From: Anaerolineales bacterium
Lineage (GTDB): Bacteria > Chloroflexota > Anaerolineae > Aggregatilineales > UBA2796
Assembly: GCA_015075625.1 (NCBI GenBank)
Contig: JABTTZ010000001.1
Span: 2,047,021 to 2,111,020 of the forward strand
DNA length: 64,000 bases
Reading direction: 5' to 3'
Positions 4,751 to 55,345 of this stretch are shown here, one piece after another. Position 1 is the first letter of the stretch. Each line of letters begins with the position of its first letter. The position numbers were made by a program, and so were the translations under genes. The notes beneath the pieces are model-generated. The model was not told the origin of the DNA. It saw nothing but the letters and a program-made list of their open reading frames with translations, and made no database searches.

Positions 4751-4815
4751 GATCCCGCCGCTAAAGCCGCGGACTGAAAGCAGCCACCCCTTCAGGGCTT
4801 GAAAGGCATAAGCGC
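4751..4815 (+). repeat. RF2 REP-like hairpin repeat (GATCCCGCCGCTAAAGC-GCGG-CTGAAAGCAGCCACCCCTTCAGGGCTTGAAAGGC)
   Basis: Near-identical copies at 55283 and 52776, related copies at 43777-43925 and 52930-52995. Contains GAAA- and UUCG-type tetraloop hairpins. Confidence 0.55.
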
Positions 4816-4993
4816 ACAGGGGGTTTCTGCTTTCTTCATCCCAAATGATTTTTGTGGCGGTACTTAGTCGTCCACCACACAGATACATAGAGATAGACTG
4901 ATCCAACAACCTCACCCCCTCCCCGTTTACGAAGAGGGGGAAGGGGTGGGGTTTTGAAATGATGTGTAATCAGACATTTACGAGGTAGTCCCA

Positions 4994-7900
4994 ATGACTC
5001 TTACATGGCGCGATTTTGTTCAACGCTGGACGGCGAGCGCCCTCGGTGAACAACAAGCCGCCCAAAGCCATTTCAACGAACTCTGCCGCTTAGTGGGGCA
5101 TAAAACACCCACCGAACTGGACCCACTGGGTGAATTTTTCACCTTTGAGGAACAAGTGACAAAGGCAACAGGTGGGCGGGGGCGGGCAGATGTCTGGTAC
5201 AAGGGGAAATTTGCTTGGGAATACAAGGGCAAGCACAAAGACTTAGATGCCGCCTATGCCCAACTGCTGGCATATAAGGGCAGTTTAGGCAACCCACCGC
5301 TGCTGATCGTTTCGGACATGGTGGAATACCGCATTTACCCCCAGTGGGTGAACACCAGCGGGCAGCCCTTCATCTTTCGCAATGCCGATTTGTTGTTTCC
5401 AGATGCACAGCGGTACATCGTATGGCTTTTGGAAGACCCAGACCGTTTTAAAGAACTGCGCGAAGATGAGCTTCGAGTACGCGAACAACTGACCACCAAG
5501 CTGGCGCAAGAATTCGCCCATCTCAGCGATTTGGTACGCAAACACCAAGACCCTAACGATCTTTGGAGTGACTATCACATTGCCCGTTTTTTTGCGCGGC
5601 TAACCTTTTGTTTGTTTGCCGAAGATGTTCAACTCATGCCGCGCCCCTTTGACCAACCTGTTTTTCGGTATCTTACCGATGGCGCACGCAACCTTCCCGA
5701 AGATTTTGTGGCAGAGATGACGCGCTTATTTATGGCGATGGATGGGCGTCAATCTGGCTTTGTGATGCGACACGTCCCCTATTTCAATGGGGGCTTGTTT
5801 AACGTCGATGACGATCCCGCCCACCTAGTTTTTGATTTGGCGAAAGATTCCGCCATGATCGATCTCTTAGAAAAGATCAGCAAGCGTGATTGGCGTAAGG
5901 TGAACCCGACCATCTTCGGCACACTCTTTGAGGCAGCCCTTGATCCGGCAAAGCGGGCGCAGTTGGGCGCTCACTATACCAGCGAGGCAGATATTCGCCT
6001 TGTTGTTGACCCTGTGTTGATGCAGCCACTTTACGACGAATGGGCGTTGACATTGGAGGAGGCTGAACCGCTCTTTCAAACCCTTTTTGATGGCGCTTCT
6101 CCCCGCCAAGAAGAGACCATTCGCGCTCGGCTGACCCTGCTTCATGACCGGATGATGTTTCGCCTTGAGACCACACAGATTCTTGATCCGGCGTGTGGGT
6201 CGGGAAACTTTCTCTATGTCAGCCTTCGGGCGCTGAAAGACCTTGAAGCACGAGTCCGCAAGACCTTTGAGCCACTTGGCTTGCCGTTTCGCGACGTTGT
6301 CACGCCGCGCCAACTCTACGGCATCGAGAAAGACCCCTATGCGGCGAACTTGGCGTTTGTCGTTATCTGGATTGGCTACTTACAATGGCGCTACGAAGAT
6401 CAGGGCGTGTTAAGTTTTAGAACACGGGTCAGCCGCCCCAACCCTCGGCATTTGCCACACCCCATTATCCAAGACAAATACCCGGACGAAACCATCGATC
6501 ACATCCTGTGCGAGGACGCCCTCTTGCGTTACGACGCGGAGGGCAAGCCCTATGAGCCGGAGTGGGTGGCGGTGGATGTGATCATGGGCAACCCGCCTTT
6601 TTTGGGGGGCAGCCGTCAACGCAGAGAGCTGGGCGGAGCTTACCTTGACGATCTCCAGAGGCTGTATCAAGGGCGGTTGGCAAGGGATAGCGATCTTGTC
6701 TGCTATTGGTTTGAGAAAGCACGCGCCCATCTAGACCAGGGAAAGGCTAAGCGGGTTGGGTTTATCGCCACCAATTCGATTCGGGGTGGTTCAAATCGCC
6801 TTGTCTTGGATCGCATCAAAGCGACGGGCGATATTTTCATGGCATGGAGCGATAATCCATGGCTCCTCGCCGGTGCAGCGGTGCGGATTTCGATTGTCGG
6901 CTTTGATAACAAGGTGCAGACAGCACGAATGCTCGATGGGGCAGTCGTCGAGAACATCCATGCCGATTTGACCGCTGGCGCTGATCTAACCGGGGCAAAG
7001 GTGCTGGCAGAAAACGCTCGCATTTGTTTTCGCAGTGACGAAAAAGGCGGATCGTTCGATATTGACGAGGCAACGGCAAGGGCGATGTTGGCGGCGAAAA
7101 ACCGCAGTGGAAAATCGAACGCCGATGTCGTGCGTCCGTACATCAATGGGCTTGATGTGACACGCGGCAGACGGAACAGGTGGGTCATCGATTTTGGCGT
7201 AGATACTACCGAAGCCGAAGCCGCCCACTACAAAATGCCCTATGAGTATGTGAAACGGATGGTGAAGCCCGAACGCGATATGGTGAACAACGAGCGCCAC
7301 CGTACCTATTGGTGGATTCACCGTATTCCTGCTGGTGATATGCGCGAGGCAATTCGACCTCTCAAGCGCTTTATCGCGACGCCTAGTGTGGCAAAACACC
7401 GCTTGTTTGTATGGGTCGAAGGCGGGATCATTCCCGATCATCAACTCTATGTCTTCGCCCGTGACGATGATTACTTCTTCGGCGTCCTCCACAGCTATAT
7501 TCATGAACTATGGTCGCTGCAGAAGGGAACATCCCTTGAAGATCGCCCTCGTTACACGCCCACAACAACCTTTGAGACCTTCCCGCTGCCTTACCCGCCG
7601 GGCAAAGAGGACACCGCATCGCCCCTCTATCAGGCGATCAGCACGGCGGCAAAGGCGCTCCACGAGGGGCGCGAGGCATGGCTGCATCCAGTGGAATTAG
7701 CGGAATTGGGGGCGACGGCAAAGGGCAAAGCGCTTTCCGAACGGACTCTGACAAATCTTTACAATGCGTTGGCAGTTCATCGCGCTGAGCCGTCCATGGG
7801 CAAGGGGAAGGGGGGGAACGGCAAAAACGGGGATAAACCCGTGAAGGCGGCAGCGCAATTCGCCCCCCAACTGGCAGCACTCCACGAAGCATTGGATAGG

Positions 7901-8020
7901 GCTGTATTGAGCGCTTACGGGTGGACTGATCTGGCTCTCACCGCCCGCACTCCGGCAGGGCAAGAAGCAATTTTACGGCGCTTGTTGGCGTTGAATCAAG
8001 CGCGAATATCGAAAGCGTAG
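4994..8020 (+). CDS. MmeI-family Type IIL restriction-modification enzyme (N-terminal PD-ExK nuclease + gamma-class N6-adenine methyltransferase + TRD in one polypeptide)
   Basis: D-X9-EYK nuclease motif (ADVWYKGKFAWEYKGK); FCLFAED and LGAHYTSEA blocks identical to MmeI; MTase motif I DPACGSGNFL and motif IV GNPPF; TNSI block; 1008 aa. Confidence 0.85.
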   Translation: MTLTWRDFVQRWTASALGEQQAAQSHFNELCRLVGHKTPTELDPLGEFFTFEEQVTKATGGRGRADVWYKGKFAWEYKGKHKDLDAAYAQLLAYKGSLGNPPLLIVSDMVEYRIYPQWVNTSGQPFIFRNADLLFPDAQRYIVWLLEDPDRFKELREDELRVREQLTTKLAQEFAHLSDLVRKHQDPNDLWSDYHIARFFARLTFCLFAEDVQLMPRPFDQPVFRYLTDGARNLPEDFVAEMTRLFMAMDGRQSGFVMRHVPYFNGGLFNVDDDPAHLVFDLAKDSAMIDLLEKISKRDWRKVNPTIFGTLFEAALDPAKRAQLGAHYTSEADIRLVVDPVLMQPLYDEWALTLEEAEPLFQTLFDGASPRQEETIRARLTLLHDRMMFRLETTQILDPACGSGNFLYVSLRALKDLEARVRKTFEPLGLPFRDVVTPRQLYGIEKDPYAANLAFVVIWIGYLQWRYEDQGVLSFRTRVSRPNPRHLPHPIIQDKYPDETIDHILCEDALLRYDAEGKPYEPEWVAVDVIMGNPPFLGGSRQRRELGGAYLDDLQRLYQGRLARDSDLVCYWFEKARAHLDQGKAKRVGFIATNSIRGGSNRLVLDRIKATGDIFMAWSDNPWLLAGAAVRISIVGFDNKVQTARMLDGAVVENIHADLTAGADLTGAKVLAENARICFRSDEKGGSFDIDEATARAMLAAKNRSGKSNADVVRPYINGLDVTRGRRNRWVIDFGVDTTEAEAAHYKMPYEYVKRMVKPERDMVNNERHRTYWWIHRIPAGDMREAIRPLKRFIATPSVAKHRLFVWVEGGIIPDHQLYVFARDDDYFFGVLHSYIHELWSLQKGTSLEDRPRYTPTTTFETFPLPYPPGKEDTASPLYQAISTAAKALHEGREAWLHPVELAELGATAKGKALSERTLTNLYNALAVHRAEPSMGKGKGGNGKNGDKPVKAAAQFAPQLAALHEALDRAVLSAYGWTDLALTARTPAGQEAILRRLLALNQARISKA

Positions 8021-8110
8021 CAGACACGTTTTTATGCCGCTCACCTTGCGTTCCCCTTCGTTACACTATAGAATCTCTCAAAAGACGCGGATAAACGGCG
8101 GCAATTCGGC

Positions 8111-9310
8111 ATGTCCACACGACGCTTTCCCGACGACAACGCCCCCTCTCCGGCTTCTCCCCCAGACCCAACACCCGGGAGCGGGACGGCGCTGCCTACC
8201 CGCCGTCCGGTGATGCCCGGACAAACACCGGGGACGCCCGTCAGCCGCGCTCCCAAACGGACGGGCAAGAGCATCCAGCATATGCCGCGCACACTTAGCC
8301 AAGTGCTGAACGATGCCAACGAACAGGTGGTGCGTGGCGACCTCAGCGAATATGTCCCTTTGCCAACAGGCTTTGATCCCCTTGATGGTTTGATCGGCGG
8401 CGGGCTGCGCAAAACAGAACTCGTCCTGCTTGGTGGGGCGCAAGGCATTGGCAAGACAATTGCCGCCGTCCAAATGGCGCGAAACATCGCCATGCGCCCT
8501 GATCAATATGTGTTCTACCTTTCCTACGAACACACCGAAACACACCTCATGAGCCGCTTGCTCTGTTTGGAGAGCATCAACCCGCCAGAGGTTGATCTGC
8601 GCAGCGGGCTGAAATTGAAAGATTTGTTCGATACGATCATCTCCCAACGGGCGCGGGAAATCTTGGGGCGCGATAACCGTGCCGAGTCCCTTCAAAGCAT
8701 TCTGCGGGAAAATCCGCGCACCTCGATGGCGCTGGCACGGCTCTCGAAGTATGCAGACCGTTTCATCATGGTCAAGGCAAGTCCGGCGGTGACGACCCTG
8801 AGCGCCATTCGAGAGATGACCGGACGGCTGGCAGAGGCGACGGGCGGCAACCTGACCGTCTTTGTCGATTATTTGCAGAAGATCGCCATTCATCCCGAAC
8901 GGGCGGCGGACGAGAACGACAAAGTGACCATTGTTGTGGAGGGGCTGAAGGATATTGCGCTCTCGTTGGGCGTCCCCGTCTTAAGCATCGTCGCCAGTGA
9001 TCGGGATGGCTTGCGGGCGAAGCGTCTGCACCTTTTTCATCTGCGGGGGAGTTCGGCGCTCGATTATGAGTGCGATATTGCGATCATCATGAACAACAAG
9101 TATCAGATTTTGGCGAAGGATCACATCGCTTTTAATCCCTATCAGGGCAAGCAGTTCCGCGATTGGGTCGTTTTTACGGTGGAGAAAAACCGCGCTGGGC
9201 GGGCGATGATGGATATGGAATTCCAACTGCACGCCCCCTACTTTGCCTTTGACCCACGCGGACAGCAAGTCCAACAAACGTTGATCGACGATAAGATCAT
9301 CGAATCCTGA
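8111..9310 (+). CDS. DnaB-like helicase C-terminal (RecA-fold) domain ATPase lacking DnaB N-terminal domain; Pro/Ser/Thr-rich disordered N-terminus
   Basis: TGFDPLDGLIGGGLRKTELVLLGGAQGIGKTIAAVQMARNIA (DnaB linker + Walker A), DYLQKI (Walker B, as DnaB IDYLQLM), LKDIALSLGVPVLSIVASDRDG. First about 90 aa are low complexity (PSPASPPDPTPGSG...). Confidence 0.7.
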   Translation: MSTRRFPDDNAPSPASPPDPTPGSGTALPTRRPVMPGQTPGTPVSRAPKRTGKSIQHMPRTLSQVLNDANEQVVRGDLSEYVPLPTGFDPLDGLIGGGLRKTELVLLGGAQGIGKTIAAVQMARNIAMRPDQYVFYLSYEHTETHLMSRLLCLESINPPEVDLRSGLKLKDLFDTIISQRAREILGRDNRAESLQSILRENPRTSMALARLSKYADRFIMVKASPAVTTLSAIREMTGRLAEATGGNLTVFVDYLQKIAIHPERAADENDKVTIVVEGLKDIALSLGVPVLSIVASDRDGLRAKRLHLFHLRGSSALDYECDIAIIMNNKYQILAKDHIAFNPYQGKQFRDWVVFTVEKNRAGRAMMDMEFQLHAPYFAFDPRGQQVQQTLIDDKIIES

Positions 9311-9311
9311 C

Positions 9312-10220
9312 TTGAGCGCCCCGATTCAGATCGTCACCGACAGCGCGGCACAGTTCCTTCTGCCCGGCTTTGCCGCCGATCAGGGAATTACGATTATTCC
9401 CTTAGAACTGGAATTAGGCGGCAGGCGCTACCGCGATGGCGTCGATATTGACGCTGAGATGATCGCCCGCCATGTGGCGGCAACGGGCGAAGCGCCGCGC
9501 CTGCTCCCCCCCAGTGTGGAAACCATTGCAGGGGTCTATGCCAACCTCTACCGTGAGTCGAATCGGATTCTCTCCGTTCACCTCTCGCGGGCGGTGCATC
9601 CCATGTGGGAAAAGGCGAAATCTGCCGCCGAAACGCTCTTGGGGCGCTGCGATATTGCCGTCTTTGATTCGCACAGCCTTGCCGCCGGACAGGGCTGGCT
9701 TACCGAGGCAGGGGTGCGCCTGACCCGTGAGACGAATTCCCTTGACGACACCGTGCGCGAACTGCGCAAGCTGATTCCCCATATTTACTCTATTTTTTGC
9801 AGCGAACGTCTCGATTACCTTTACCGTGCCGGACTCCTGTTGGAATCTCAAGCCGTTTTGGGGAATATGTTGGCAATCAAGCCGTTTCTCACCCTAGAGG
9901 ACGGTGAATTGGTCGTCATGGAGAAGGCGCGATCCAAGCCACAGGTTGTCGATAAGCTGATCGAATTCGTCACCGAATTTGCCGCCGTAGAACAGCTTGC
10001 CGTACTGCGTGGGGCATCCGCCGCGCCGGAGGTGATGCGCTCCCTTGCCGAGCGGATGCGAGAGGAATTCAGCCCAACGCCCTACCCCATCCTCACGGCG
10101 TCATCCGTGTTGGCATCTTTGCTTGGCACAGAGGCAATTGGGATCATGATTCTTGAGCGTGAATTAGGCAACCGCGGGGGGGATTATGACGATGACTTTG
10201 ACGGTGAGGATGATGAGTAG
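9312..10220 (+). CDS. DegV family (fatty-acid binding) protein
   Basis: IQIVTDSAAQFLLPGFAADQGITIIPLELELGGRRYRDGVDIDAEM matches the DegV/EDD fold N-terminus. TTG start 2 nt after the upstream stop; its stop is 2 nt before the next ATG. Confidence 0.75.
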   Translation: MSAPIQIVTDSAAQFLLPGFAADQGITIIPLELELGGRRYRDGVDIDAEMIARHVAATGEAPRLLPPSVETIAGVYANLYRESNRILSVHLSRAVHPMWEKAKSAAETLLGRCDIAVFDSHSLAAGQGWLTEAGVRLTRETNSLDDTVRELRKLIPHIYSIFCSERLDYLYRAGLLLESQAVLGNMLAIKPFLTLEDGELVVMEKARSKPQVVDKLIEFVTEFAAVEQLAVLRGASAAPEVMRSLAERMREEFSPTPYPILTASSVLASLLGTEAIGIMILERELGNRGGDYDDDFDGEDDE

Positions 10221-10222
10221 CC

Positions 10223-12430
10223 ATGTCCGATGTTCTCGAAGCACTGGTGGGGTATGTTCTGATTGCGGGCGGACGGGCGGTGAGCGCCCCTCCCCCCGGC
10301 GCCATTGTTGAACTACCGCCCCGCAAAACCCAGCGCGGACGGGAACAAGACACATTCTTCGCGCTCATCGTGCCAGCGGGCAAAACACACCAACCCGCCC
10401 CCTTTTATGAGGGGTTGGTGCGCTATGCCGCCGATCTCTACTTTCGGGCAGGGGGGAGCGTCACCAGCGGGCTGCGCGATGTGCTGAACGCAATCAACCA
10501 GCAGCTTTTGGATCACACCGCAAACACCGGAAATAAAGCTGAAATCGGCATGGCGGCGGTAGTCTTGCGCGGGGCGGAAATTTACCTAGCGAAGGCGGGC
10601 GCGACACTGTGCGCGCTAAAACAAACCGACGATTTCACCACCCTCCCCGCCGACCTCAGCGATGCCCTCAACAGCGACCCCTTTAATCTTGGCACAAGCA
10701 CACACCCCGATGTGCGGCTTGCCCGCTATGAGGTTGCCTCTGGCGATGCGCTCTGCCTTGCCGATCTGAACCTTGCCCGCATTGAGCCAGTAGCACTGGA
10801 AGCAGCCCTTGCCAAAGGCAATCTTCCCAATGTGATCGAGGGCATTAAGGCGCTTGCCCCTGCCCAAATCCAAGCGATGATTATCGAATTTGTCTCCACA
10901 GACACGCCCGATCCGGTGCTGCCGCCCTCGCGCCCGGTCAGCACGGCTGCCCCTAGCAGCGGCGTCCTCGTCACCAGCGTCAGCAAACCGCCCAAACGTC
11001 CCACAGGGACAATCCGTATTCCGCTCACCCCCTCAACGCCCGCCAAACAGACGCTCACCCTCCCCACTCAGGAAGGGACGGTGGAGGCATCAGAGGGAGA
11101 TGAGGACACAACACCCCCAACGGAGGGAGCGCCGACCCTTCTCTCGCGGATAGGCAGCGCGGCGGGGTGGTTTGGCGGTGGGCTCAGCCGTGCGGTGGAT
11201 CGGCTGCTGCCCGAACCAACAGAAGATGGGTCGCCGCGCCTTCCGGTCATGTTCGCCGCGGCGCTGGCAATTGCCGTCCCTGTGCTGATTGTCTTTGTGA
11301 TCGTTGCCCTGCGGCTCTCGCAGTTCGATATGACGCAATTTGAACAACAGGTGCAAGAGGTGTTGAAGGCAGCCGAACAGGCGCGGGTGATCGCCCTTGC
11401 TGATGTGCCAAATGCCCGCGCCGCATGGATGGAAGTGCTGCGTCGTGTGGAGGGCGTGGAAATTGCTTCCGGGCGGACGGGCGACCCTGAACTGCTGAAA
11501 GTACGCGCCGAAGCGCAAGGGATTCTCGATCAGTTTGACAAAGTGACGCGGCGAACGCCGGTTGCCCTGCGCAATTTTGGGACAGGCGCCGTGATGAGCG
11601 ATCCGATCATACGCGGCGGGGCGGATGTCTACACGCTGGATCGGGCGTCGAGCGCCATTTACCGCGACACCTTGAATCCGAACAGTGTCGCCCTCATCAC
11701 CCGCAACGCGCAGCCAGTGGTTCAACGGGGGCAGTCGGTGGGGGCGTTCTCCGTCCGCCAGATCATCGACATGGCGTGGGTCAGCGAGGGCGGCACACAG
11801 CGGGCAAACGTCCTCGCTGCGCTCGATACACAAGGGCTGCTGATCACCTACTCGCCTACCTTTGCTCCGGCAACGGCACAGCGCTTACCAGGGGCAGATT
11901 TATGGGGCGATCCGGTGGCGATGTATGTGTGGCGCGGCAACCTTTACCTGCTTGACCCAACGGAAAACCAGATTTGGCGCTATCGTCCGGTGGGGAATAG
12001 CTATCCCAACCCGCCAGAAACCTACTTTGAGCCGGATGATCGTCCCGACCTCTCGTTAGGTGTTGATCTCGCCATTGATACGGCGGGGAATGTCTATGTT
12101 TTGTTTGCCGATGGGCTGCTTGGCAAATACAATGGGGGGACGCCGCTGAAGTTCGTCTACACGGAAATGCCCGATGGCGGCGCTCCCCGCAGCGCAGCCG
12201 CGATGTTCCTTGACGCCGATTCCCCCCTTCCAGCAATTTATGTGGTCGATCCCAAAGATCAGTCCGTCTACCAAATCACCCTATCGGGGGCGTTTCGCTA
12301 TCGGTTTCGGGCGGCAGATGGGGCGATGTTCAGCGGGGTGACCAGCGTATTTGTGACGGGGAACACCGTTTATGTGGCGGCGGGGTCGGTTTTGTACTCA
12401 TTTTCCCTTAACGACCTGACGGGGGGGTAG
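10223..12430 (+). CDS. Single-pass membrane protein: N-terminal divergent PP2C-like domain, one TM helix, C-terminal beta-propeller-like repeats
   Basis: PP2C-like blocks ALIVPAGK (DGxGG position) and MAAVVLRGAEIYLAKAGATLCAL (GDSR block with Asp replaced); TM LPVMFAAALAIAVPVLIVFVIVAL; C-terminal NVYVLFADG / TVYVAAG repeat units. ATG coupled to DegV stop. Confidence 0.55.
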   Translation: MSDVLEALVGYVLIAGGRAVSAPPPGAIVELPPRKTQRGREQDTFFALIVPAGKTHQPAPFYEGLVRYAADLYFRAGGSVTSGLRDVLNAINQQLLDHTANTGNKAEIGMAAVVLRGAEIYLAKAGATLCALKQTDDFTTLPADLSDALNSDPFNLGTSTHPDVRLARYEVASGDALCLADLNLARIEPVALEAALAKGNLPNVIEGIKALAPAQIQAMIIEFVSTDTPDPVLPPSRPVSTAAPSSGVLVTSVSKPPKRPTGTIRIPLTPSTPAKQTLTLPTQEGTVEASEGDEDTTPPTEGAPTLLSRIGSAAGWFGGGLSRAVDRLLPEPTEDGSPRLPVMFAAALAIAVPVLIVFVIVALRLSQFDMTQFEQQVQEVLKAAEQARVIALADVPNARAAWMEVLRRVEGVEIASGRTGDPELLKVRAEAQGILDQFDKVTRRTPVALRNFGTGAVMSDPIIRGGADVYTLDRASSAIYRDTLNPNSVALITRNAQPVVQRGQSVGAFSVRQIIDMAWVSEGGTQRANVLAALDTQGLLITYSPTFAPATAQRLPGADLWGDPVAMYVWRGNLYLLDPTENQIWRYRPVGNSYPNPPETYFEPDDRPDLSLGVDLAIDTAGNVYVLFADGLLGKYNGGTPLKFVYTEMPDGGAPRSAAAMFLDADSPLPAIYVVDPKDQSVYQITLSGAFRYRFRAADGAMFSGVTSVFVTGNTVYVAAGSVLYSFSLNDLTGG

Positions 12431-12458
12431 GGCGGGGCTGCGCCCCACCCGCCCCCTA
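12423..12458. terminator. GC-rich imperfect hairpin between convergent genes (possible bidirectional terminator)
   Basis: gggggtagggcggggctgcgccccacccgccccctacagg between stop of 10223..12430 (+) and stop of GH9 (-). No clear T-tract. Confidence 0.3.
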
Positions 12459-12462
12459 CAGG

Positions 12463-14787: not shown

Positions 14788-14803
14788 CAGAAATACCTCC
14801 TAT

Positions 14804-15667: not shown

Positions 15668-15693
15668 CGAACAACCTCCAACCTTCTGCGCCT

Positions 15694-22894: not shown

Positions 22895-22897
22895 ATC

Positions 22898-23029: not shown

Positions 23030-23100
23030 CTGAGGGCGCATTTCTCCCCCCTTTCCCTGCCTACGGGGAAAGGCGACTGCTGCGCAGTAACCGGGGGGGG
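23030..23100. repeat. RF1-related fragment (CCCTTTCCCT-N-GGGAAAGGCGA hairpin + GGGGGGATAGAGGGGTTC module)
   Basis: Shares modules with 46419-46506 and 55540-55610. Confidence 0.4.
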
Positions 23101-35412: not shown

Positions 35413-35628
35413 ACGGATCGTTTAGCAGCGGGCGCACACAGACGCCGAACAGGATTCCCCCTACTTCCACAAGGAGGCGGGGCAGAGAGTGCGCGCGTCT
35501 TGCCCTGATCTCAGCCCCGTGCTTTAGCACGGGGGGAACACATTCAAGCCCCACCCTCCAATTTCCGTCAAGTCGCGGTACAATCTTTCCCCTGAATTGA
35601 AACCGTGAAGGAATCATTGAAACCCCTT

Positions 35629-39285: not shown

Positions 39286-39480
39286 AAGTGTAATAAAACT
39301 CCCTGTCCTGAATGACCGGTCAATGTTCGGTTGTGTTGATAGTGTAACCCCAGTGACCCCACCGCTAAAAGGCTTGTCTGGTAAGGAAAAGAAGGTATCG
39401 CCCATGGACACTCCAAGACAACAACGAAAGGATTGAACAATGGATAGGAATACCTTCTTCACCGAATTATAGGTGTAGAC

Positions 39481-39737
39481 GTTACACCGTTGCCCTCACC
39501 CCCTACCTCCTTCTCCCTCAGGGAGAAGGAGGAAAAGAGGTTTTGAGGGGCTTCCCCTCAAACATCCCCTTTGGATGAATACAGAGGAAACACGTTCAAC
39601 TGCGTAACTCACCTTACGCACAGACCCTCACCCCTAACCCCTCTCCCGCCACGCGGGAGAGGGGGAATGCACTTTTTTGAGGGGCCTCAAACTGCCCCTT
39701 TCGACGAATACGGGGTGAACAAACCCAACTGCGTAAG
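39481..39737 (+). repeat. RF1 MITE-like repeat, two tandem units (B1 39481-39607, B2 39608-39737)
   Basis: B1: gttacaccgttgccctcacc...ttttgaggggcttcccctcaaa...gttcaactgcgtaa. B2 flanked by 13-bp perfect TIR CTCACCTTACGCA...TGCGTAAGGTGAG with truncated TTTTTTGAGGGGCCTCAAA hairpin. Confidence 0.6.
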
Positions 39738-40912: not shown

Positions 40913-41037
40913 CTTATACAGTTGGATTTATTTCCCCTGTGTTTTGGCAAAGGGGCAGCTTGAGGGGGAAGCCCCCTCAAAACTAGGATTCCCCCTCTCC
41001 CCTTGTGAGGGTTAGGGAGTGAGGGCAACTGCGTAAT
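40913..41037 (-). repeat. RF1 MITE-like repeat, copy C
   Basis: cttatacagttgg...cttgagggggaagccccctcaaaac...gtgagggcaactgcgtaa; same orientation and modules as copy A. Confidence 0.6.
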
Positions 41038-41082
41038 CTCTGTAAGGATTAGTCCCCTTCACAAGCCCACTCCCTACATGCC

Positions 41083-41814: not shown

Positions 41815-41842
41815 CCCTTCCTTTCGTTTCCTTTACGGCGTT

Positions 41843-43748: not shown

Positions 43749-43776
43749 GGGGCAATAGCAGATGCCTAGACAAAGC

Positions 43777-43925
43777 GGACGCCCCAAGAGGGCGTCCCTA
43801 CGGGGATGCGGGGAGGCACGGGGCTAAAGCCTGCGTGCTGAAAGCAGATTTTGGGTCTTTCCCTGCTTTCAGCCCCGTCCTTTAGGGCGGGACGGTCAAT
43901 CCTAACCGTCCGGCGCAAACCCGGG
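43777..43925. repeat. Hairpin-dense intergenic block with two RF2-related units in inverted orientation between convergent genes
   Basis: Successive perfect stems: GACGCCC-caagag-GGCGTC; GGGCTAAAGCC; GCTGAAAGCAG and its inverted partner CCCTGCTTTCAGCCCC; GGACGG-tcaatcctaa-CCGTCC. Confidence 0.5.
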
Positions 43926-43941
43926 CGCATACAATGCGCCC

Positions 43942-45972: not shown

Positions 45973-46025
45973 AAATTGCCTAAATCCCTTTCTTATGCTC
46001 AGGGGTGAGCATGACATAGGTAGAC

Positions 46026-46506
46026 GTTACACAGTTGCCCTTATCCCCCTGCCTCCCTCTGCCTCCCTCTGCCTCCCTTCTCCCAGTGGGAGAAGGAGGA
46101 ATCCATTGTTTGAGGGGGAAGCCCCCTCAAACTTCCCCTTTCGATGAATACAGGGTAAACAGGCGCAACTGCGTAAGCCGTAATAGGATCACACCAATGA
46201 ATCGTACACCCGATCAGAGATTAAGATATACCCCCAATGGTTAGGGGGGAAGAACATCTCCTAGTTCACCAGAAAAATTTCTAACTCACTCACCTTACGC
46301 ACAGCCCCTCACCCCCTCGCCCGTGTAGTGGGGGATTCTCTTTGGGAGGGGTGCTGCCCCTCCCCACCCTTTTATACAGCTAATCTCAGGGAGAATCACA
46401 TTGTTTGCGTAAGGTGAGCTTATCCCCCCGCCCCTTTCCCTATAGACAGGGAAAGGCGAGAAATTCTGCGGGCGAGGAGGATGAGGGCAACTGCGCAACG
46501 TCTGTG
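46026..46506 (+). repeat. RF1 repeat array: unit D1 46026-46176 (canonical), D2 46286-46418 (variant with GGAGGGGTGCTGCCCCTCC hairpin, 16-bp TIR), D3 46419-46506 (CCCTTTCCCT...GGGAAAGG module)
   Basis: D1 gttacacagttgccc...tttgagggggaagccccctcaaac...gcgcaactgcgtaag. D2 ctcaccttacgcacag...ttgtttgcgtaaggtgagc. D3 ends gagggcaactgcgcaac. Confidence 0.6.
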
Positions 46507-46636
46507 AATTAGAAAAAATGTCGGAAGGTTTGGATAGAAAATGGTTAAGATCGTATTACCTGCAATGTTCCATGATAGAATGGCGTTTGATGAAGGATGT
46601 TTTTAACTGAGAACAATTGTTTAGAAAGGCGGAGGG

Positions 46637-46996: not shown

Positions 46997-47003
46997 TCTA
47001 GGG

Positions 47004-48644: not shown

Positions 48645-48824
48645 TTTGCCCCATAAAAAATGAACGCAACTCCCATGATAGACAATGACAACCCTACTTC
48701 AGTATTGTTAAGGAAATGGGTGAGACAAACTATTCAGCCGCCTGATTGACGCCGTACCGAGCGTTCCTGTAGGCTTATGCCCGTCAAGGTTGGAAATCAT
48801 ACCGAAAGAAAGGCTAAAGACAAC

Positions 48825-49853
48825 ATGACGGTTAAACAACGTTCGCTCTGCGTGATCATGGCGCTGGCTGTCCTTCTGACAACACTTGGCGCGGCAGGGT
48901 TTACAGCAACCGCCCGCGCTTCTGAGGAAACGCTCACCCTGTATTCGGGACGCAATGAGAAATTGATGTCCCCCATATTGGAAGAATTCACGAAAGATAC
49001 GGGCATTAAACTGGCAATTCGCTACGGGGATACGGCGGAGATGGCAGCGACCATCCTTGAGGAAGGCGATAACAGCCCGGCGGATGTCTTTTTGGCACAG
49101 GATGCCGGAGCGCTTGGGGCGTTGGCGGCGGAAGAACGCCTGACGGTGATCCCCGACACCCTCTTAGAGCGTGTCCCGGCAGAATTTCAATCGCCCGATG
49201 GTGTGTGGGTGGGGGTGTCGGGACGCGCCCGCGTATTGGCATACAACACGAAGGCGCTCAAAGCCGATCAACTGCCGACCTCGATCCTTGATTTGGTGAA
49301 GCCGGAATACAAGGGGCGTGTGGCATGGGCGCCAACGAATGCTTCCCTGCAAAGCCAGGTGACGGCGCTGCGCGTTTTGCTTGGCGAGGAAAAAACAGCC
49401 GAATGGCTGAAGGGAATGGTAGCCAACGAGACGAAAGTCTATTCGGGAAATGTCCCGATGGTGAAGGATGTTGCCGATGGCGTTGTGGAGATGGCGATCA
49501 CAAACCACTACTACATTTGGCAGCTTCGCGCCACAACGCCGGATACAGCGGTGGCGGCAGCGTTCTTCCCGAAAGGTGATCCAGGGGCGCTGGTGAACGT
49601 TGCCGGCGCGGGCATTTTGACGACGAGCAAAAAGCGCGAGACAGCGGCGAAGTTGATCGATTATCTGCTCTCAGAGAAGGCGCAAAAATACTTTGCCGAG
49701 ACAACCTTCGAGTATCCCTTGATCGAAGGGGTGGCGCTTGCCGACGGGCTGACGCCCCTTGCCGATCTGGAGATGCCAGAGATTGACCTGAGCGACCTTG
49801 CCGATTTGCGCGGCACACTGGCGCTGCTGCAAGAGACTGGCGTCCTTCCGTAA
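48825..49853 (+). CDS. Fe(III) ABC transporter periplasmic binding protein (FbpA/AfuA-like)
   Basis: GRARVLAYNT, ITNHYYIWQL, signal peptide. ATG 48825 chosen (SD GAAAGG); ORF track starts at 48777. Confidence 0.8.
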   Translation: MTVKQRSLCVIMALAVLLTTLGAAGFTATARASEETLTLYSGRNEKLMSPILEEFTKDTGIKLAIRYGDTAEMAATILEEGDNSPADVFLAQDAGALGALAAEERLTVIPDTLLERVPAEFQSPDGVWVGVSGRARVLAYNTKALKADQLPTSILDLVKPEYKGRVAWAPTNASLQSQVTALRVLLGEEKTAEWLKGMVANETKVYSGNVPMVKDVADGVVEMAITNHYYIWQLRATTPDTAVAAAFFPKGDPGALVNVAGAGILTTSKKRETAAKLIDYLLSEKAQKYFAETTFEYPLIEGVALADGLTPLADLEMPEIDLSDLADLRGTLALLQETGVLP

Positions 49854-50138
49854 AGGGAGAGGCGGGCAATTCGAGAGGATTGCCCGCCAGCAAACCTATG
49901 CACCATAGAATAGACACATGACGAAAAGCAGACAATTTACAGATCGTTCGTCATAGAAAAATAACCCGTTAACGTTTATAACGAATAGTAAGCCGAGAGC
50001 GAGAACAGGACGAAAGATAGCCCGATGCAGATTGCCCGCAGCACATCGCCCGCCCGCCCCATCGCCCCCAACGCGCTGCCCCCCCTGCGGGGGGGAATCA
50101 TCTTGCCTCGTTTTCGCCTTCCGCAAACGACGGGGGGA

Positions 50139-51689
50139 ATGGCGCTCCATCTGTTTGGGCTGATCGTCGCAGCGGCGGTGCTGATCCCCGTTGGGTATTT
50201 GGTCTTTCGGGCGGCAAGTGGCGGGGAGGCAGCGATCCGCTATCTCTTTAGTGGGCGGGTGATGGCGATCATTGGGAACACAGTGGTGTTGGTGGGGGCG
50301 GTAGTCGGCGCGGCGACGGTGCTTGCCGTCCTGTTTGCTTGGCTGACGACGCGGACAGATGTCCCCTTCCGGCGGGCGTGGCTGATCCTCGGCTTGCTGC
50401 CACTCGTAATCCCCTCGTACATTGGGGCGATGACGTTTGCCGCCGCGTTTGGGGCAAAGGGCTACCTTCAGCAGATGCTCCTCCCGTTGGGGGTTGAGCG
50501 CCTACCCTCCATCTATGGTTTTTTCGGGGCGTGGCTGGTGATCACCCTCTTCACCTACCCCTACGTCGCCTTGCCGCTGCGTGCCGCGCTATTGAACACC
50601 GATCCGGCGTTGGAAGAATCAGGGCGAAGCATGGGCTTGAGCGCCTTCGCCACCTTTCGGCGGGTGACGTTTCCCCAACTGCGCCCGGCGTTGGGGGTGG
50701 GGATGATCCTCGCCGCGCTCTATACCCTGAGCGATTTTGGGGCAGTGGCAATCATGCAGTATGACAGCTTCACCCGCGTGATCTTCGTCCAATACACCAG
50801 TTCGTTCAATCGCGGGATTGCCGCCACACTTTCGTTGGTGTTGGTTGTTTTCGCTTTTGGGCTGATTTTTCTTGAGCGGCGCATCGCCAGCCAGAAAAAG
50901 AACTATCGGGCAGGGGTGGGGGCGTGCCGCAAACATCGGGTTGTCGCCTTGCGGGGATGGAAAGTGCCAGCGCTTCTGTTTTGTGGGGGACTGGTGTGCT
51001 TGGGGGTGGGCGTGCCCGGGATGGTCTTGGCGGCGTGGTTGGCTGAGGGGGCGGCAGCAGGGGTGACGCTGCCGCTATTGGATGGGGCGCTACTGAACAC
51101 GGTGACGGTCAGCGGGGCTGCGGCTCTTGTCGTCGGGGTGGTGGCGCTGCCGATGGCGCTGCTTGCGGTGCGTTCAAACGGGCGTTGGGGACGGTGGATC
51201 GTTCAGATCACCTTTTTGGGGCATGGCTTGCCCGGCTTGGTCATTGCGCTCGCCCTCGTCTTTGTGGCGGCGAACGCCCTCCCCGCGCTGTATCAGACGC
51301 TCCCTATTTTGATTTTCGGGTACGGGGTGCGCTTTTTGCCCCTGAGCATCGGGGCGACACGGAGCGCCCTCACCCAGATCAACCCCCGATTGGGAGATGC
51401 CTCGCGCAGCTTGGGGCTTTCGGCATGGCAGACAACGCGGCGGGTGACGCTCCCTCTGATGCGGGCGGGTGTGCTTGGCGGGATGGCGCTTGTTTTCCTG
51501 AACACGATGAAAGAACTCCCCACAACCTTGATGCTCTCCCCGACAGGTTTCCGCACGCTGACAACCCACCTGTGGACAGCGCAAACAAACGGCGATTGGG
51601 CGCTTGCCGCCGCCCCTGCCCTGGTCATTGTGGCGGTTTCGGCGCTCTCGCTTGTGTTCATCCTGCGGGATGGCGCTGGCAACCATTAA
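50139..51689 (+). CDS. Fe(III) ABC transporter permease, fused two-domain (FbpB-like)
   Basis: Two repeated 6-TM halves each with an EAA loop (ESGRSMGLSAFATFRRVTFP and GDASRSLGLSAWQTTRRVTLP). ORF track starts at 50025. Confidence 0.8.
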   Translation: MALHLFGLIVAAAVLIPVGYLVFRAASGGEAAIRYLFSGRVMAIIGNTVVLVGAVVGAATVLAVLFAWLTTRTDVPFRRAWLILGLLPLVIPSYIGAMTFAAAFGAKGYLQQMLLPLGVERLPSIYGFFGAWLVITLFTYPYVALPLRAALLNTDPALEESGRSMGLSAFATFRRVTFPQLRPALGVGMILAALYTLSDFGAVAIMQYDSFTRVIFVQYTSSFNRGIAATLSLVLVVFAFGLIFLERRIASQKKNYRAGVGACRKHRVVALRGWKVPALLFCGGLVCLGVGVPGMVLAAWLAEGAAAGVTLPLLDGALLNTVTVSGAAALVVGVVALPMALLAVRSNGRWGRWIVQITFLGHGLPGLVIALALVFVAANALPALYQTLPILIFGYGVRFLPLSIGATRSALTQINPRLGDASRSLGLSAWQTTRRVTLPLMRAGVLGGMALVFLNTMKELPTTLMLSPTGFRTLTTHLWTAQTNGDWALAAAPALVIVAVSALSLVFILRDGAGNH

Positions 51690-51714
51690 CACCCCTAACA
51701 TTTCCTCAGCGCTG

Positions 51715-52770
51715 ATGGATTCTCCGGCACTCATCGTCGCCCAACTGCATAAAACGTTTGGCAGCCAACCCGCCTTGCGCGGCGTTTCGCTGACGGTTTA
51801 CGCTGGCGAGATCATGGCGCTTTTGGGCGCAAGCGGCTGCGGAAAAACAACGCTCTTGCGGGTGATTGCCGGCTTTGAGCAGCCGGATACCCCACAGGGC
51901 GGGACGATCTCGATTGGCGGGCGGGTGGTTGCCGGAGATGGTGTGCAAACCCCACCGGAATTGCGGCGGGTGGGAATGGTCTTTCAAGATTACGCGCTTT
52001 TTCCCCATCTGAATGTGGCGGAGAACATCGCCTTTGGGGTGAAAGGCAACGCCACCGCCAAAGCGAGCCGCACTACCGAACTGTTGGATTTGGTTGGGCT
52101 GGAGGGGTTTCGCCAACGGATGCCCCATGAGTTATCCGGCGGGCAGCAGCAGCGCGTTGCCCTTGCACGCGCCCTCGCTCCGCAGCCGGATATGCTGCTT
52201 TTGGACGAGCCATTCTCGAACCTAGATGCCGCGCTGCGGGGAATGATGCGCGTTGAAATACGGGCGATCTTGCGACGGGTGGGGATAACAGGTGTTTTCG
52301 TCACCCACGATCAAGAGGAAGCGCTGAGCCTTGCAGATCGGGTGGCGGTCATGGCAGAGGGGCATATCGTCCAGTGTGATACGCCGGAGGTCATTTACAA
52401 TGCGCCGATCAACCGAAAGGTGGCGTCCTTCATTGGTGAGGCGTCGTTCTTGGCGGGGATAGGGCGAGGGGAAACGGTGCGCTGTGCGCTAGGCGATTTG
52501 CCCTTAGACGAACCGAGAACGGGCGCGGTGGCGGTTATGATTCGCCCGGAGATGGTGCGCCTGACGCCCGCTGCGGAGTGGGCAGATGGCGACACCTCTG
52601 GCGAGGGGCGCGTTTTGTGGCGGGAGTATTACGGGCGCGATCAACGGGTGGGGGTGGCGCTTGGGGAAAGCGTGATCATCGCCCGCGTAGAGGCGTCGCC
52701 GCCCTACACGGCGGGGATGGGGGTGCGGGTAGCAGTGCGCGGCAAGGTGCGGGCATTTGCGGGCGGGTGA
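51715..52770 (+). CDS. ABC transporter ATP-binding protein (FbpC/PotA-like)
   Basis: Walker A GASGCGKTT, signature LSGGQQQRVALARAL, Walker B LLLLDEPFS. Alternative starts 51670 or 51604. Confidence 0.8.
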   Translation: MDSPALIVAQLHKTFGSQPALRGVSLTVYAGEIMALLGASGCGKTTLLRVIAGFEQPDTPQGGTISIGGRVVAGDGVQTPPELRRVGMVFQDYALFPHLNVAENIAFGVKGNATAKASRTTELLDLVGLEGFRQRMPHELSGGQQQRVALARALAPQPDMLLLDEPFSNLDAALRGMMRVEIRAILRRVGITGVFVTHDQEEALSLADRVAVMAEGHIVQCDTPEVIYNAPINRKVASFIGEASFLAGIGRGETVRCALGDLPLDEPRTGAVAVMIRPEMVRLTPAAEWADGDTSGEGRVLWREYYGRDQRVGVALGESVIIARVEASPPYTAGMGVRVAVRGKVRAFAGG

Positions 52771-52775
52771 GACAT

Positions 52776-52995
52776 CGCCCGCCGCTAAAGCAGCGGGCGA
52801 AGAACGCCCCCCCTACGGGGCTTGGAATGCGCCCTCACCCCCTAGCCCCCTCCCCCGCAAGGGGAGGGGGAATCCATGCGCCGCACCAAGAAAGGGATGC
52901 CGCCTGGGGTGTCCGCGCTTGACCGGCGCACCCATCTTCCGTTTTAAGCCCCAACGGGGTGATTCGTCCTAGCGCGAGGGCTTTAGCCCCGCACC
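52776..52995. repeat. RF2 REP-like units in inverted orientation (52776-52838 forward, about 52930-52995 reverse) flanking a GNRA hairpin CCCCCTCCCC-GCAA-GGGGAGGGGG, between convergent fbpC and trpA
   Basis: cgcccgccgctaaagcagcgggcgaagaacgcccccctacggggcttgg; reverse copy gcggggctaaagccc...caccccgttggggcttaaaacgg. Confidence 0.5.
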
Positions 52996-53035
52996 AACGC
53001 ATGTTCGTACCTCGGAGGGGTGCATCGTGTGCGCG

Positions 53036-53839
53036 CTATCCACAAGCAGCCCGCAGCGCAGCCGCCAATGATCGCACAGCCGGAAGCCCTTCCTTTTCAT
53101 ACAGACGAATCAAGGCACTAGCGACGATCACGCCATCGGCGTGGGCGGCAACCCCCCGCGCCTGTTCTGGCGTGCTGATCCCAAAGCCCACAGCAAGGGG
53201 AAGCGGCGTTTCCGCCCGGACGCGCCTCACATAACTGACCAGATCGGGTGGGAGCGCTGCCCGTGCGCCAGTGACGCCCGTCACCGAGACAAGGTAGATG
53301 AAGCCGCGTGCCATCGCCGCGATGTGGCGGATGCGCTCCGGCGTGGTGTTGGGGGCGACGAGCGGAATCTGACCGACGCCCGCCCGCTCTGTGTAGGTCG
53401 TTAGATCGGCGGATTCCTCTGGGGGGAGGTCGGGAAGAATCAAGCCGCTAACACCGGCTTCCGCAGCCTCGCTGACGAAACGTTCTAACCCATAATTGAG
53501 GACAGGGTTCACATAGCCCATCAGGATGAGGGGGATGGTGACGCCCCGCGCCCGCAGAGTGCGAATGGCAGCCAGGCAATCACGGAGTTTTGTCCCCTGA
53601 GCCAGCGCCACATTGGAGGCGTGCTGAATCACGGGACCATCGGCAAGCGGATCAGAAAAGGGCATCCCCACTTCCAGGGCATCAGCACCGGATTCGGCAA
53701 GGGCAACCAGCGCCTCAATCGAATCGGGAAGGGTTGGGTAGCCAACGGTGAAAAAGGGCATGAAGGCAGCCCGCCCTTCGGCTTTGGCACGGGCGAAGGT
53801 GGCTTGAATAGACCCTAAGCCGCTGTGAGTTGAGATCAT
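53036..53839 (-). CDS. trpA: Tryptophan synthase alpha subunit
   Basis: Full-length TrpA homology ([24 protein letters not shown]). Confidence 0.9.
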
Positions 53840-55080
53840 TTGCCTGCCACCACTTTCTGGGCATCAAGCGCCTTGATTACGGTGTCAAGGTCTTTATCCC
53901 CCCGCCCGGAGAGGTTGACCAAGAGGATCGCCGTGCGGGGCAGTGTGGGGGCAAGGCGGATCGCCTCAGCAACGGCATGGGAGGATTCGAGGGCGGGGAT
54001 GATTCCTTCGTATCGGCAGAGCATTTGGAAGGCATGAAGCGCTTCGGCATCATCGGCAAGGGTGTATTCTGCCCGTCCGCTATCGCGCAGAAAACTGTGT
54101 TCGGGTCCGACGCTGGCGTAATCCAGCCCGGCGCTAATGCTGTGCGTTTCAGCGATCTGCCCGTCGTCGTCTTGCATGACGTAGGAGCGGGTCCCGTGAA
54201 GGACTCCCAAACGCCCGATGGTAGGGTCGGCAAAGCGGGCGGCATGTTTGCCGCTGGCAATGCCATAGCCGCCCGCCTCAACGCCGATCAAGCGCACCGC
54301 CGGATCGTCGCGGAAGGCATGAAACATGCCAATGGCGTTACTTCCGCCGCCCACACAGGCGATCACGGCATCGGGCAAGCGCCGTGCGAGGTCGAGGATT
54401 TGCGCCCGCGCCTCAATGCCGATCACCGATTGAAAATCGCGGACGATCCGCGGGTAAGGGTGGGGTCCGAGCGCTGAGCCAAGAAGGTAGTAGGTGGTGT
54501 GGACGTTCGTCACCCAATCGCGGATTGCCTCGTTGATCGCATCTTTGAGGGTTTTACTGCCGCTTTCCACCGCCCGTACCTCGGCGCCCAACAAACGCAT
54601 CCGAAAGACGTTCGGCGCCTGCCGCGCCATATCGACGCTGCCCATGTAAACGATACATTCCAAGCCAAGCAAAGCGCAGACGGTGGCGCTGGCAACGCCG
54701 TGCTGCCCGGCGCCGGTCTCGGCAATGATGCGCTGTTTGCCCATCCGCTTGGCAATGAGCGCCTGCCCTAGCGCGTTGTTGATCTTATGCGCCCCACTGT
54801 GGGCAAGGTCTTCGCGCTTCAGATAAATCTGCGCCCCGCCGAGGTGATCGCTAAGCCGCTTGGCATGGCTGATAGGCGTCGGGCGTCCGGTGTAGGTACG
54901 GTGAAGGTGGGCGAGTTCGGCGGTGAATTCGGGGTCATCCTTCAGGCGGGCGTAAGCGTCCGTCAGTTCATCCAGGGCGGGGACGAGGGTTTCGGGGACA
55001 AAACGTCCGCCAAATTTGCCAAAATAGCCGCGCTCATCGGGGAGGGGCGGCGTATCGGGGAGGTGGTTGGGGGTGTTCAT
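53836..55080 (-). CDS. trpB: Tryptophan synthase beta subunit
   Basis: [24 protein letters not shown]-lysine region; 4-nt overlap with trpA; start at MNTPNHL with SD AGGATG. Confidence 0.9.
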
Positions 55081-55282
55081 GGCACATCCTGTAAACCGCA
55101 TTTGGGTTTATTTTTTTGCAGTAGGCGACCCGCCAATCTTACCAGAGGGGCGCATTGTCCGCACCGATTCGTTGTGATGACGGTGGCGGAAAGTCTTTGC
55201 CCGCGCCCCCGCACTAAGGGACGAGGCTGAGAGGAGGGAAAGGCGCCCTAAGTACCACCACAGTGAAAAGGCGGGCTGACGT

Positions 55283-55345
55283 ATGATCCCGCCGCTAAAG
55301 CAGCGGGCTGAAAACAGCCACCCCTTCGGGGCTTAAGAGGCATAT
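55283..55345 (+). repeat. RF2 REP-like repeat upstream of trpB
   Basis: gatcccgccgctaaagcagcgggctgaaaacagccaccccttcggggcttaagaggcat. Confidence 0.55.

Follow-up and report, generated by a model that had tools for sequence, protein, structure and literature searches.

Whether a family of small hairpins repeated between bacterial genes acts in RNA or is copied as DNA is the question raised by a 64,000-nt stretch of the genome of an Anaerolineales bacterium (Chloroflexota; assembly GCA_015075625.1, contig JABTTZ010000001.1, positions 2,047,021 to 2,111,020), the whole of which is referred to here as the window. A preliminary description of this DNA assigned the repeats to the repetitive extragenic palindrome (REP) type, and proposed that they function at the RNA level, as bidirectional terminators or stabilizers of mRNA 3' ends. 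The analysis presented here indicates, with moderate confidence, that the units, which are built around a hairpin termed H1, are REP-like, non-autonomous DNA repeats, and that this hairpin is probably recognized by an IS200-like Y1 transposase encoded elsewhere in the genome.

The H1 hairpin and its copies in the window

H1 is a 20-nt imperfect hairpin with an 8-bp stem containing one mismatch, CCCGCCGC-TAAA-GCAGCGGG, followed by a CTGA tail, which contributes to a mini-hairpin (CTG-AAAR-CAG) in the source lineage. A second small hairpin, H2 (CCCC-TTCG-GGGG, then CTT), is often present. The traits that define H1 are its invariant TAAA loop, an A that usually occupies the third pair on the 3' arm, and the CTGA tail. 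Four of the window copies (u4, u5, u6, and u7, below) are variants in which the loop and tail are kept and the stem is altered. In an alignment of 102 distinct H1 sequences from all loci, fitted to a covariance model, 88% of the cells are paired and five of the eight pairs have changed on both sides, although, because retrieval by pattern had fixed the H1 sequence, only a few variants (14 cells) underlie this covariation. At the pair that is third from the loop, 91 of the 102 sequences have a C.A mismatch. The compensatory changes that the preliminary description had named as a check on its proposal are, then, present in the stem.

Three exact matches to the core CGCCGCTAAAGCNGCGG are found in the window, at 4756, 52780, and 55290, all on the + strand, whereas shuffled sequences yield just 1.38 matches even when three mismatches are permitted. 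Over the unit of ~50 nt, the 4751 and 55285 copies are close to identical, and across 98 nt their identity is 85%; in the 52775 copy, H1 is exact and the second hairpin has diverged. When a covariance model of H1 and its tail was run over the whole window with the filters off, it returned seven matches of 28-42 bits, at 4751 (+; u1), 55285 (+; u2), 52775 (+; u3), 52966 (-; u4), 35508 (-; u5), 43866 (-; u6), and 43814 (+; u7). The next-best match (16.7 bits) corresponds to a true match read on its reverse strand, and there is no further match in the window. All seven units belonged to the training alignment of the model, and it is therefore the gap in the scores and the absence of further matches that are informative. 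The exact core and the covariance matches bear out the recurrence of a unit of ~60 nt at 4751, 52776, and 55283, as first described, and the partners proposed at 43777-43925 and 52930-52995 prove to be real members of the family under the model, which also adds a member absent from the original list (35504-35534, -).

The seven units occupy five loci, all of them intergenic. The extension of the window through exact-protein look-ups, which added ~9.5 kb on each side, gave one new unit (u8), at positions 4045-4064 of contig L127, ~5.4 kb past the right end of the window. The family thus has the short imperfect palindrome, the multiple extragenic copies (seven units in 64 kb and one in the ~9.5-kb extension), and the inverted doublets (43816-43893 and 52775-52995) of the REP type, and the original assignment to a REP-like or BIME-like class that often occurs as inverted pairs is upheld. 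The window units end in CTGA, CGAA, or GCTA, and not in the classical GTAG (or CGTC) tag, and a comparison of G.T with C.A asymmetry between the strands gave mixed signals.

Shared hairpins in other phyla and Y1 transposase genes

A scan of genome contigs with the 17-base H1 core recovered at least 120 loci, mostly chance matches in coding sequences, and the source genome was not among the matches listed. The identical 24-mer CCCGCCGCTAAAGCAGCGGGCTGA, including its C.A mismatch, was found by the genome and metagenome scans at dozens of loci in a metagenome-assembled genome (MAG) of the Abditibacteriaceae, and also in two other Chloroflexota MAGs and in the Terriglobia. Most of the Abditibacteriaceae copies are arranged in inverted pairs of ~115 bp, in the REPIN-like order H1>, hairpin, hairpin, <H1. 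When a metagenome collection was scanned with a 28-mer particular to u1 and u2, no match was obtained, and the collection therefore lacks the source lineage; two scans of viral contigs returned chance coding matches or nothing.

The link with a transposase comes from six metagenome loci, in which H1 lies ~95 nt upstream of an IS200-like Y1 gene. Wherever both flanks are covered, mirrored modules of three hairpins stand on the two sides of the gene, ordered outward as hairpin A, H1 with CTGA, and hairpin B. A Y1 gene flanked by long inverted repeats is found at L136/L179, L176, L169, L196, and L201. The six genes lie in one common chromosomal neighborhood, and their close database homologues are 82-89% identical, which is the behavior of a kept, single-copy gene. 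The protein contains the HUH and Tyr motifs, and scores 71.8 bits for IS200/IS605. When all of the genomes are taken together, the same H1 is dispersed at many loci.

The homologues at L201 and L206, with 56-60% identity, are flanked by CCAGCCC-TAAA-GGACTGG-CCTGAA and CCAGGCG-TAAA-CGACTGG-ACTAAG, respectively, that is, by new stems that keep the loop, have a mismatch with an A as their third pair, and run into a tail of CTGA or CTAA. Modules of the form CCTGC-TAAA-GCAGG flank a Chloroflexi homologue (L209); in these, the third pair is T-A and CTGG follows. The conservation of TAAAGSA and of a CTGA-like tail exceeds the needs of base pairing, which fits the recognition of the hairpin by a protein.

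This conservation beyond pairing, together with the strictly intergenic location of the units, might equally be claimed for DNA sites that serve the host, bound by gyrase, nucleoid proteins, or a regulator, and kept by selection on double-stranded DNA; the BIMEs of E. coli, for example, bind gyrase and IHF. The covariation of the stem and the conserved mismatch, however, argue for a hairpin that is extruded or single-stranded, and the contexts of recent insertion and of transposase genes fit selfish spread better, which makes such a host function very improbable.

Under the favored interpretation, that of a REP-like repeat recognized by a Y1 enzyme, H1 would be extruded as single-stranded DNA, at replication forks, for example, and a Y1/HUH transposase, in contact with the loop, the mismatch, and the tail, would bind it and then cut and rejoin nearby. 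Units and pairs would in this way be copied into intergenic DNA, and the enzyme would both propagate and preserve them, singly or in inverted REPIN-like pairs. The shells of ~150 bp that surround two of the copies may provide a second, DDE-type route for the module, while any hindrance of read-through or of exonucleases at loci between convergent genes would be a by-product. The copying of hairpin units by Y1 enzymes has been proposed for REP/RAYT and IS200/IS605 elements, and the TIRYT systems with dispersed repeats, discussed below, may work likewise. On this interpretation, the source genome would carry a Y1 gene of its own, the product of which would have acted on the window copies and moved them in the past.

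REP and REPIN elements with RAYT transposases have reportedly been described by Nunvar et al. The H1 family resembles such elements, as presented by Bertels and Rainey 2011 (PMC3116915), in its imperfect palindromes of 20-40 nt, its extragenic and multi-copy distribution, its inverted doublets, and the short conserved tag by the stem, as well as, at loci in other genomes, in the single-copy Y1 transposase flanked by repeats. It differs in the tag and in the associated proteins, which score as IS200-type rather than RAYT, and also in that the H1 sequence is common across phyla, whereas REPs are mostly lineage-specific.

The closest described kind is the TIRYT, or TIRtron, which Di Nocera et al. 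2013 (PMC3733652) portray as a Y1 gene flanked by long inverted repeats with self-complementary tracts, with repeats that are dispersed as singles, dimers, and clusters, and with a well-defined group in the Acidobacteria. The same layout is found in the H1-flanked Y1 genes at L136, L176, L169, L196, and L201, while the TIRYT motif that the authors give, GGGGWSAS, differs from the TAAA and CTGA seen here, in a comparison of layout and motif rather than of the sequences of the terminal inverted repeats (TIRs). The source organism also differs from the TIRYT case in being known from dispersed repeats alone, and in the extra TIR shell around two of the window copies. The H1 family can be filed as one that functions like REP, and belongs to the broader kind of hairpin repeats tied to Y1 transposases.

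A wider proposal is that one hairpin (CCCGCCGC-TAAA-GCAGCGGG with CTGA and the C.A mismatch) serves one clade of IS200-like Y1 enzymes as substrate, and that horizontal transfer has carried this hairpin-enzyme system into at least three phyla (Chloroflexota, Abditibacteriota, and Acidobacteriota). This is a tentative suggestion, somewhat less likely than not to be right. If it is true, a spread of this kind would oppose the view of a vertical inheritance of REPIN-RAYT systems. If the REP-like reading is right, the TAAA loop, the A at the third position of the stem, and the CTGA tail would constitute a testable recognition signature for one Y1 clade. An Anaerolineae-like Chloroflexota MAG, from a poorly studied group, would also join the map of REP-type systems.

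Some variation on these arrangements was observed in other genomes. In an uncultured Chloroflexi MAG (L103, 3484-3651; L106, 3017-3327), CTAC comes after H1, complementary to the GTAG tag of classical REPs, and H1 is paired with the hairpins AGCCGCC-TAAA-GGCGGCT and AGCCTGC-TAAA-GCAGGCT; this form bridges the H1 family and the REPs of the GTAG type. Six loci from sediment metagenomes (L140, L142, L147, L165, L167, and L168) contain head-to-tail arrays with a period of 98 bp and, in L142, at least 11 units, each composed of one H1 with CTGA and a GCCCTGCGGGC hairpin, unlike the inverted pairs found elsewhere. In a Chloroflexi MAG (GCA_012513725.1; L209, ~770-2010, and L210, ~860-2110), an insertion sequence (IS) of the IS630 family, with DDE_3 and helix-turn-helix domains and the TIR GAGAGTTGACTAATTATGCGCACC, is inserted in the TAAA loop of the H1-type hairpin downstream of a Y1 gene, and an adjacent deletion is seen in L210. 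The H1-flanked Y1 gene of L169 (reverse strand) is split at ~11950-12080 by an insert of ~120 bp, with the ends TGTGAAAA...TTTTCACA, which is unrelated to the H1 family. Two Y1 homologues found in many sources (P0139 and P0147) were considered as candidates for the source organism's own gene, and were discarded as coming from other organisms.

The shell around two copies and the evidence of movement

Only u1 and u2 are enclosed in a shell of ~150 bp, which has 12-nt TIRs and is flanked by TA. The first full copy (4715-4866, +) begins with TA at 4715-4716 and the left TIR AGTACAACCACA at 4717-4728, and ends with the right TIR TGTGGCGGTACT at 4853-4864 and TA at 4865-4866. The second (55249-55399, +) has TA at 55249-55250, AGTACCACCACA at 55251-55262, TTTGTTTGTACT at 55386-55397, and TA at 55398-55399. 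The TIRs are in the correct inverted arrangement in both copies, either of which is able to form a long hairpin, and the outer flanks are C...G in both (C-TA...TA-G), which would reconstruct a CTAG target. Judging from these two copies, which have no known empty site, the shell resembles a miniature inverted-repeat transposable element (MITE) that has duplicated the TA of a CTAG target. The other six units have no TIR remnants, and the window and its extensions contain no more TIR matches, nor any autonomous IS or transposase gene bounded by AGTACNACCACA TIRs, for which the scan of viral contigs also gave 0 matches.

Three observations adjoin these elements. The right flanks of the two full copies have 12 of 19 bases in common beyond the TIR, a sigma-70-like promoter match (TAGACC-16-TAGAAT, 55401-55428) abuts the right end of the second, and a gene for a 1008-aa MmeI-like type IIG restriction-modification enzyme (4994-8020) lies directly downstream of the first.

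The movement of an H1-carrying element is documented in another Chloroflexota contig (L032), where a Y1 open reading frame (ORF) is interrupted by an element of ~204 bp that has inverted ends of its own (GTGGTCCGTCC...) and contains an H1 pair. The removal of the element restores a full-length Y1_Tnp match, and an intact allele on an ENA contig (L208), which is 99% identical and encodes 142 aa, marks the empty site. The aligned blocks of the two alleles have CTAAG in common, which gives a target-site duplication of 3-5 bp, and a second copy (L034) has the same 5-mer with another central base relative to the element, which identifies the 5-mer as target DNA rather than part of the element. Composites that carry H1 do, then, move, at least in the L032 genome. 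The H1 flanks in L032 were also considered as a RAYT-style arrangement, which was ruled out, the element being an insertion into the Y1 gene.

An alternative history is one in which a plain DDE-type MITE, the TIR element of ~150 bp, is what moves, with H1 and H2 as its cargo, the solo units as decayed remnants, and no part for a Y1 enzyme. The duplication of TA in a CTAG target is typical of IS630/Tc1-like elements, and the bacterial MITEs of this type include Correia, RUP, and Nezha. The two full copies are similar to such MITEs in their length of ~150 bp, their 12-nt TIRs, the TA flanks in a CTAG-like site with C...G outside, and the long hairpin; a comparable TIR element carrying H1 was inserted in L032 with a target-site duplication, and an IS630-family IS adjoins an H1-type hairpin in L209. 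The conserved part here, however, is the internal H1 module rather than the ends, the shell is present in just two of the eight units while the others have no trace of its TIRs, and no parent IS has been found. Most of the members found elsewhere are inverted pairs without a shell, and the shell in L032 contains the same H1 although its TIRs are unrelated and its duplication differs, which means that H1 is independent of any one shell. A MITE of this kind is an unlikely explanation of the whole family.

A number of points weigh against the involvement of a Y1 transposase in a REP-like family, and have to be set beside the evidence above. The TIRs and target-site duplication of the L032 element, the only proven insertion, indicate a DDE-type enzyme rather than Y1 chemistry. 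For none of the window copies did an empty site or a presence/absence polymorphism emerge, all recovered assemblies of this organism carry the copies, and the TrpA relatives, at 71% identity or less, are too distant for an orthologous empty-site comparison. A tblastn search found no Y1 gene in the window or in ~20 kb of extensions. The H1-adjacent Y1 proteins either have no match to the NCBIfam RAYT model or score 35.7 bits, against a cutoff of 80; the structure of the E. coli RAYT was unmatched, and the best PDB match is the ISDra2 TnpA. Instead of GTAG/CTAC, the tag reads CTGA (TCAG in the complementary strand), and the Y1 genes could sit amid the hairpins as insertion targets, with the hairpins having no role as a substrate. 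The small number of variants behind the covariation of the stem, noted above, belongs here as well.

In the source organism itself, H1 repeats break metagenome assemblies and concentrate strain-level polymorphism: contigs from other samples of this organism end inside these repeats, and three of the five single-nucleotide polymorphisms (SNPs) between the window and a 99.7%-identical assembly lie in the u2 and u3 elements. A segment of 452 bp (52615-53066), which includes u3, u4, and both gene ends, is present twice in tandem in four contigs (L121, L122, L123, and L127). The second copy has 11 SNPs, the flanks of ~20 kb are identical, and a single-copy contig (L124) has the variant allele. This apparent tandem duplication is probably the product of two strain alleles assembled in series, at a local hot spot of polymorphism.

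Gene context and the RNA-level interpretations

The individual units differ in their completeness and in their position relative to the neighboring genes, all five of the window loci being in the ~10% of non-coding DNA (coding fraction ~0.90). The best copy, u2 (55285-55334, +; 41.6 bits), consists of H1 as CCCGCCGC-TAAA-GCAGCGGG, followed by GCTG-AAAA-CAGC, CCCC-TTCG-GGGG, and CTT, and lies between the divergent trpB and VWA genes, beside the promoter-like site. The unit u1 (4751-4800, +; 37.9 bits), with H1 as CCCGCCGC-TAAA-GCCGCGGA at 4754-4773, a mini-hairpin CTG-AAAG-CAG at 4774-4783 (+), and H2 as ACCCC-TTCA-GGGCT at 4786-4799 (+), is found between two + strand genes, which encode a DNA_alkylation protein and the MmeI-like enzyme. 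Between the convergent genes of an fbpC-like ABC ATPase and trpA, u3 (52775-52823, +; 36.7 bits) starts 5 nt past the stop codon of the ATPase gene, with an exact H1 and then GCCCCCCC-TACG-GGGGCTT. Its diverged inverted partner, u4 (52946-52995, -; 28.3 bits), lies 41 nt past the stop codon of trpA, and reads GCGGGGC-TAAA-GCCCTCGC, followed by a linker and CACCCC-GTT-GGGGCTT.

The second inverted pair, which is REPIN-like, is located between the convergent MM_CoA_mutase and Band_7 genes. Its left half, u7 (43816-43847, +; 34.1 bits), is GCACGGGGC-TAAA-GCCTGCGTGC followed by TGAAAGCAG, and lies 68 nt past the stop codon of the mutase gene; the right half, u6 (43862-43893, -; 33.1 bits), is GTCCCGCCC-TAAA-GGACGGGGC followed by TGAAAGCAGG, 49 nt past the stop codon of the Band_7 gene, and keeps its third pair, counted from the loop, as a C.A mismatch, with the adjoining pairs swapped. 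In u5 (35504-35534, -; 38.0 bits), which is CCCCGTGC-TAAA-GCACGGGG and then CTGAGATCAGG, the stem sequence has changed, with the loop and the tail kept. This unit is antisense to both of its + strand neighbors, the genes of a Ser/Thr kinase-PBP and a UDP-glucose dehydrogenase, and u8 is also antisense, between NeuB and an ABC gene.

It was on such positions that the preliminary description based its RNA-level proposal, and the two inverted pairs that it placed between convergent genes (mutase/flotillin and fbpC/trpA) are confirmed by the gene context. The bias toward gene ends that it anticipated does not emerge, and placement is random as far as the sample shows. The six loci, five in the window and one in L127, comprise two convergent, one divergent, and three tandem contexts (two of the tandem loci being antisense), which is about the expectation for random intergenic placement. 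Among 95 non-redundant relatives elsewhere, crude ORF calls gave 45 tandem, 12 divergent, and 10 convergent contexts, that is, no convergent bias.

The units might nonetheless work in RNA, as bidirectional terminators that lack a U-tract or as 3'-end barriers to exonucleases that stabilize the upstream mRNA, functions that have been reported for some REP/BIME sequences of E. coli. Five of the eight units (u1, u3, u4, u6, and u7) are in the sense orientation 5-143 nt past a stop codon, the inverted pairs at two loci fall exactly between convergent genes, compensatory changes are seen in the stems, one SNP between alleles of u4 converts a G.U pair to G-C, and an Rfam motif classed as a small RNA (sRNA), RF01687, recurs, though below its threshold. 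Other observations weigh against such a role. No T-run follows any of the units, as the preliminary description had already noted, and a scan for intrinsic terminators found 19 sites, about the background rate (14.2 in shuffled sequences), none of them after a unit in the sense orientation; two low-ranking matches overlap H2 of u2, on the strand opposite to the unit. The z-scores of RNA folding, between -0.02 and -3.2, indicate ordinary stability.

The loops, which the preliminary description had presented as ultra-stable GAAA and UUCG tetraloops, offer no more support. The H2 loop varies among UUCG, UUCA, UACG, GUU, and UUUG (the last outside the window) and three units have no H2, UUCG is confined to the 55285 copy, and the mini-hairpin loops are AAAG, AAAA, and AGAU, of which AAAG and AAAA are not GNRA loops. 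The sole invariant loop, UAAA, belongs to neither the UNCG nor the GNRA class. A GCAA hairpin (CCCCCTCCCC-GCAA-GGGGAGGGGG, 52846-52870) that had been counted as part of the family belongs to another repeat family. In addition, the strand to be transcribed would be the one with the conserved C.A mismatch of the main H1, u2 lies in the promoter region of divergent genes, the orientation of u5 and u8 is antisense, the relatives elsewhere have no convergent bias, and other copies are found inside mobile elements and around transposase genes. An RNA-level function of the terminator or stabilizer kind is unsupported by these observations, and can be considered improbable.

At the gathering thresholds of Rfam, only a tRNA was detected in the window, and only tRNAs in 20 related loci. 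When the threshold is relaxed, a single Rfam family recurs, RF01687 (Acido-Lenti-1), which scores 28.8 bits over the full length of the model at 55288-55333 (u2; E 5.9e-5 in a 251-nt search) and 12.0 bits at 4754-4799 (u1), below the gathering score of 37, which is not reached in the window or in the 20 related loci. Weinberg et al. 2010 (PMC2864571) described Acido-Lenti-1 as an sRNA candidate from Acidobacteria and Lentisphaerae, with 89 representatives, supported by covariation and with no function given. The seed alignment has the layout of the units described here (a hairpin, a CUAC, CUGA, or CUAA tail, a linker, a hairpin, and U), and many copies per genome. The two agree in the 8-bp hairpin with a 4-nt loop, the CU(A/G)N tail, the linker of ~12 nt, and the 5-bp second hairpin ending in U, and they differ in the loops, which are UCAC or UGAC in the seed and UAAA here, and in the interpretation as an sRNA candidate, set against the DNA-repeat context found here.

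The full-length match to u2, with its two hairpins and CU(R) tail in the architecture of the seed, could suggest that the units are Acido-Lenti-1 members that act in trans as small RNAs. This is extremely improbable, given that both scores fall below the gathering threshold, that no promoter or terminator frames the units, that their orientation is mixed and their multi-copy inverted pairs are unlike sRNA genes, and that the published support for the motif consists of covariation only. If the REP-like reading of H1 is right, Acido-Lenti-1 may itself be a DNA repeat, and, under the wider proposal on H1, the motif would be the DNA footprint of a hairpin-enzyme system and not an RNA gene. This reinterpretation and the identity of H1 across phyla stand out as leads. 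Annotation of such repeats as terminators or sRNAs is unwarranted without RNA evidence.

The window also contains other repeats. The family to which the GCAA hairpin belongs is composed of GCCCTCACCCCCTA and a poly-C/poly-G hairpin with a GCAA loop; a fragment of it lies between u3 and u4 (52831-52870, +), further copies are at 3693 and 39492, and there is a similar hairpin at ~4913-4942. Poly-C/poly-G hairpins with variable stems occur, more generally, at 3693-3730, 39492-39529, 52831-52870, and 4898-4945, and also at 23048, 46431, and 55553. They either follow a GCCCTCACCCCCTA leader or are of the CCCCTTTCCC...GGGAAAGG type, and tend to adjoin H1 units. A separate and larger intergenic family (3624-3767, 39477-39737, 40913-41049, and 46075-46189), with copies that are 75-87% identical and in both orientations, has the ends CTTACGCAGTTG... 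and a palindrome TTGAGGGGG-N-CCCCCTCAA. At the left end of the window, the ribonucleotide reductase gene (1-2237, -; L131, 7300-13806), which adjoins nrdR (2371-3009) and runs off the end of the sequence, encodes a product of 2168 aa with several intein and LAGLIDADG domains.

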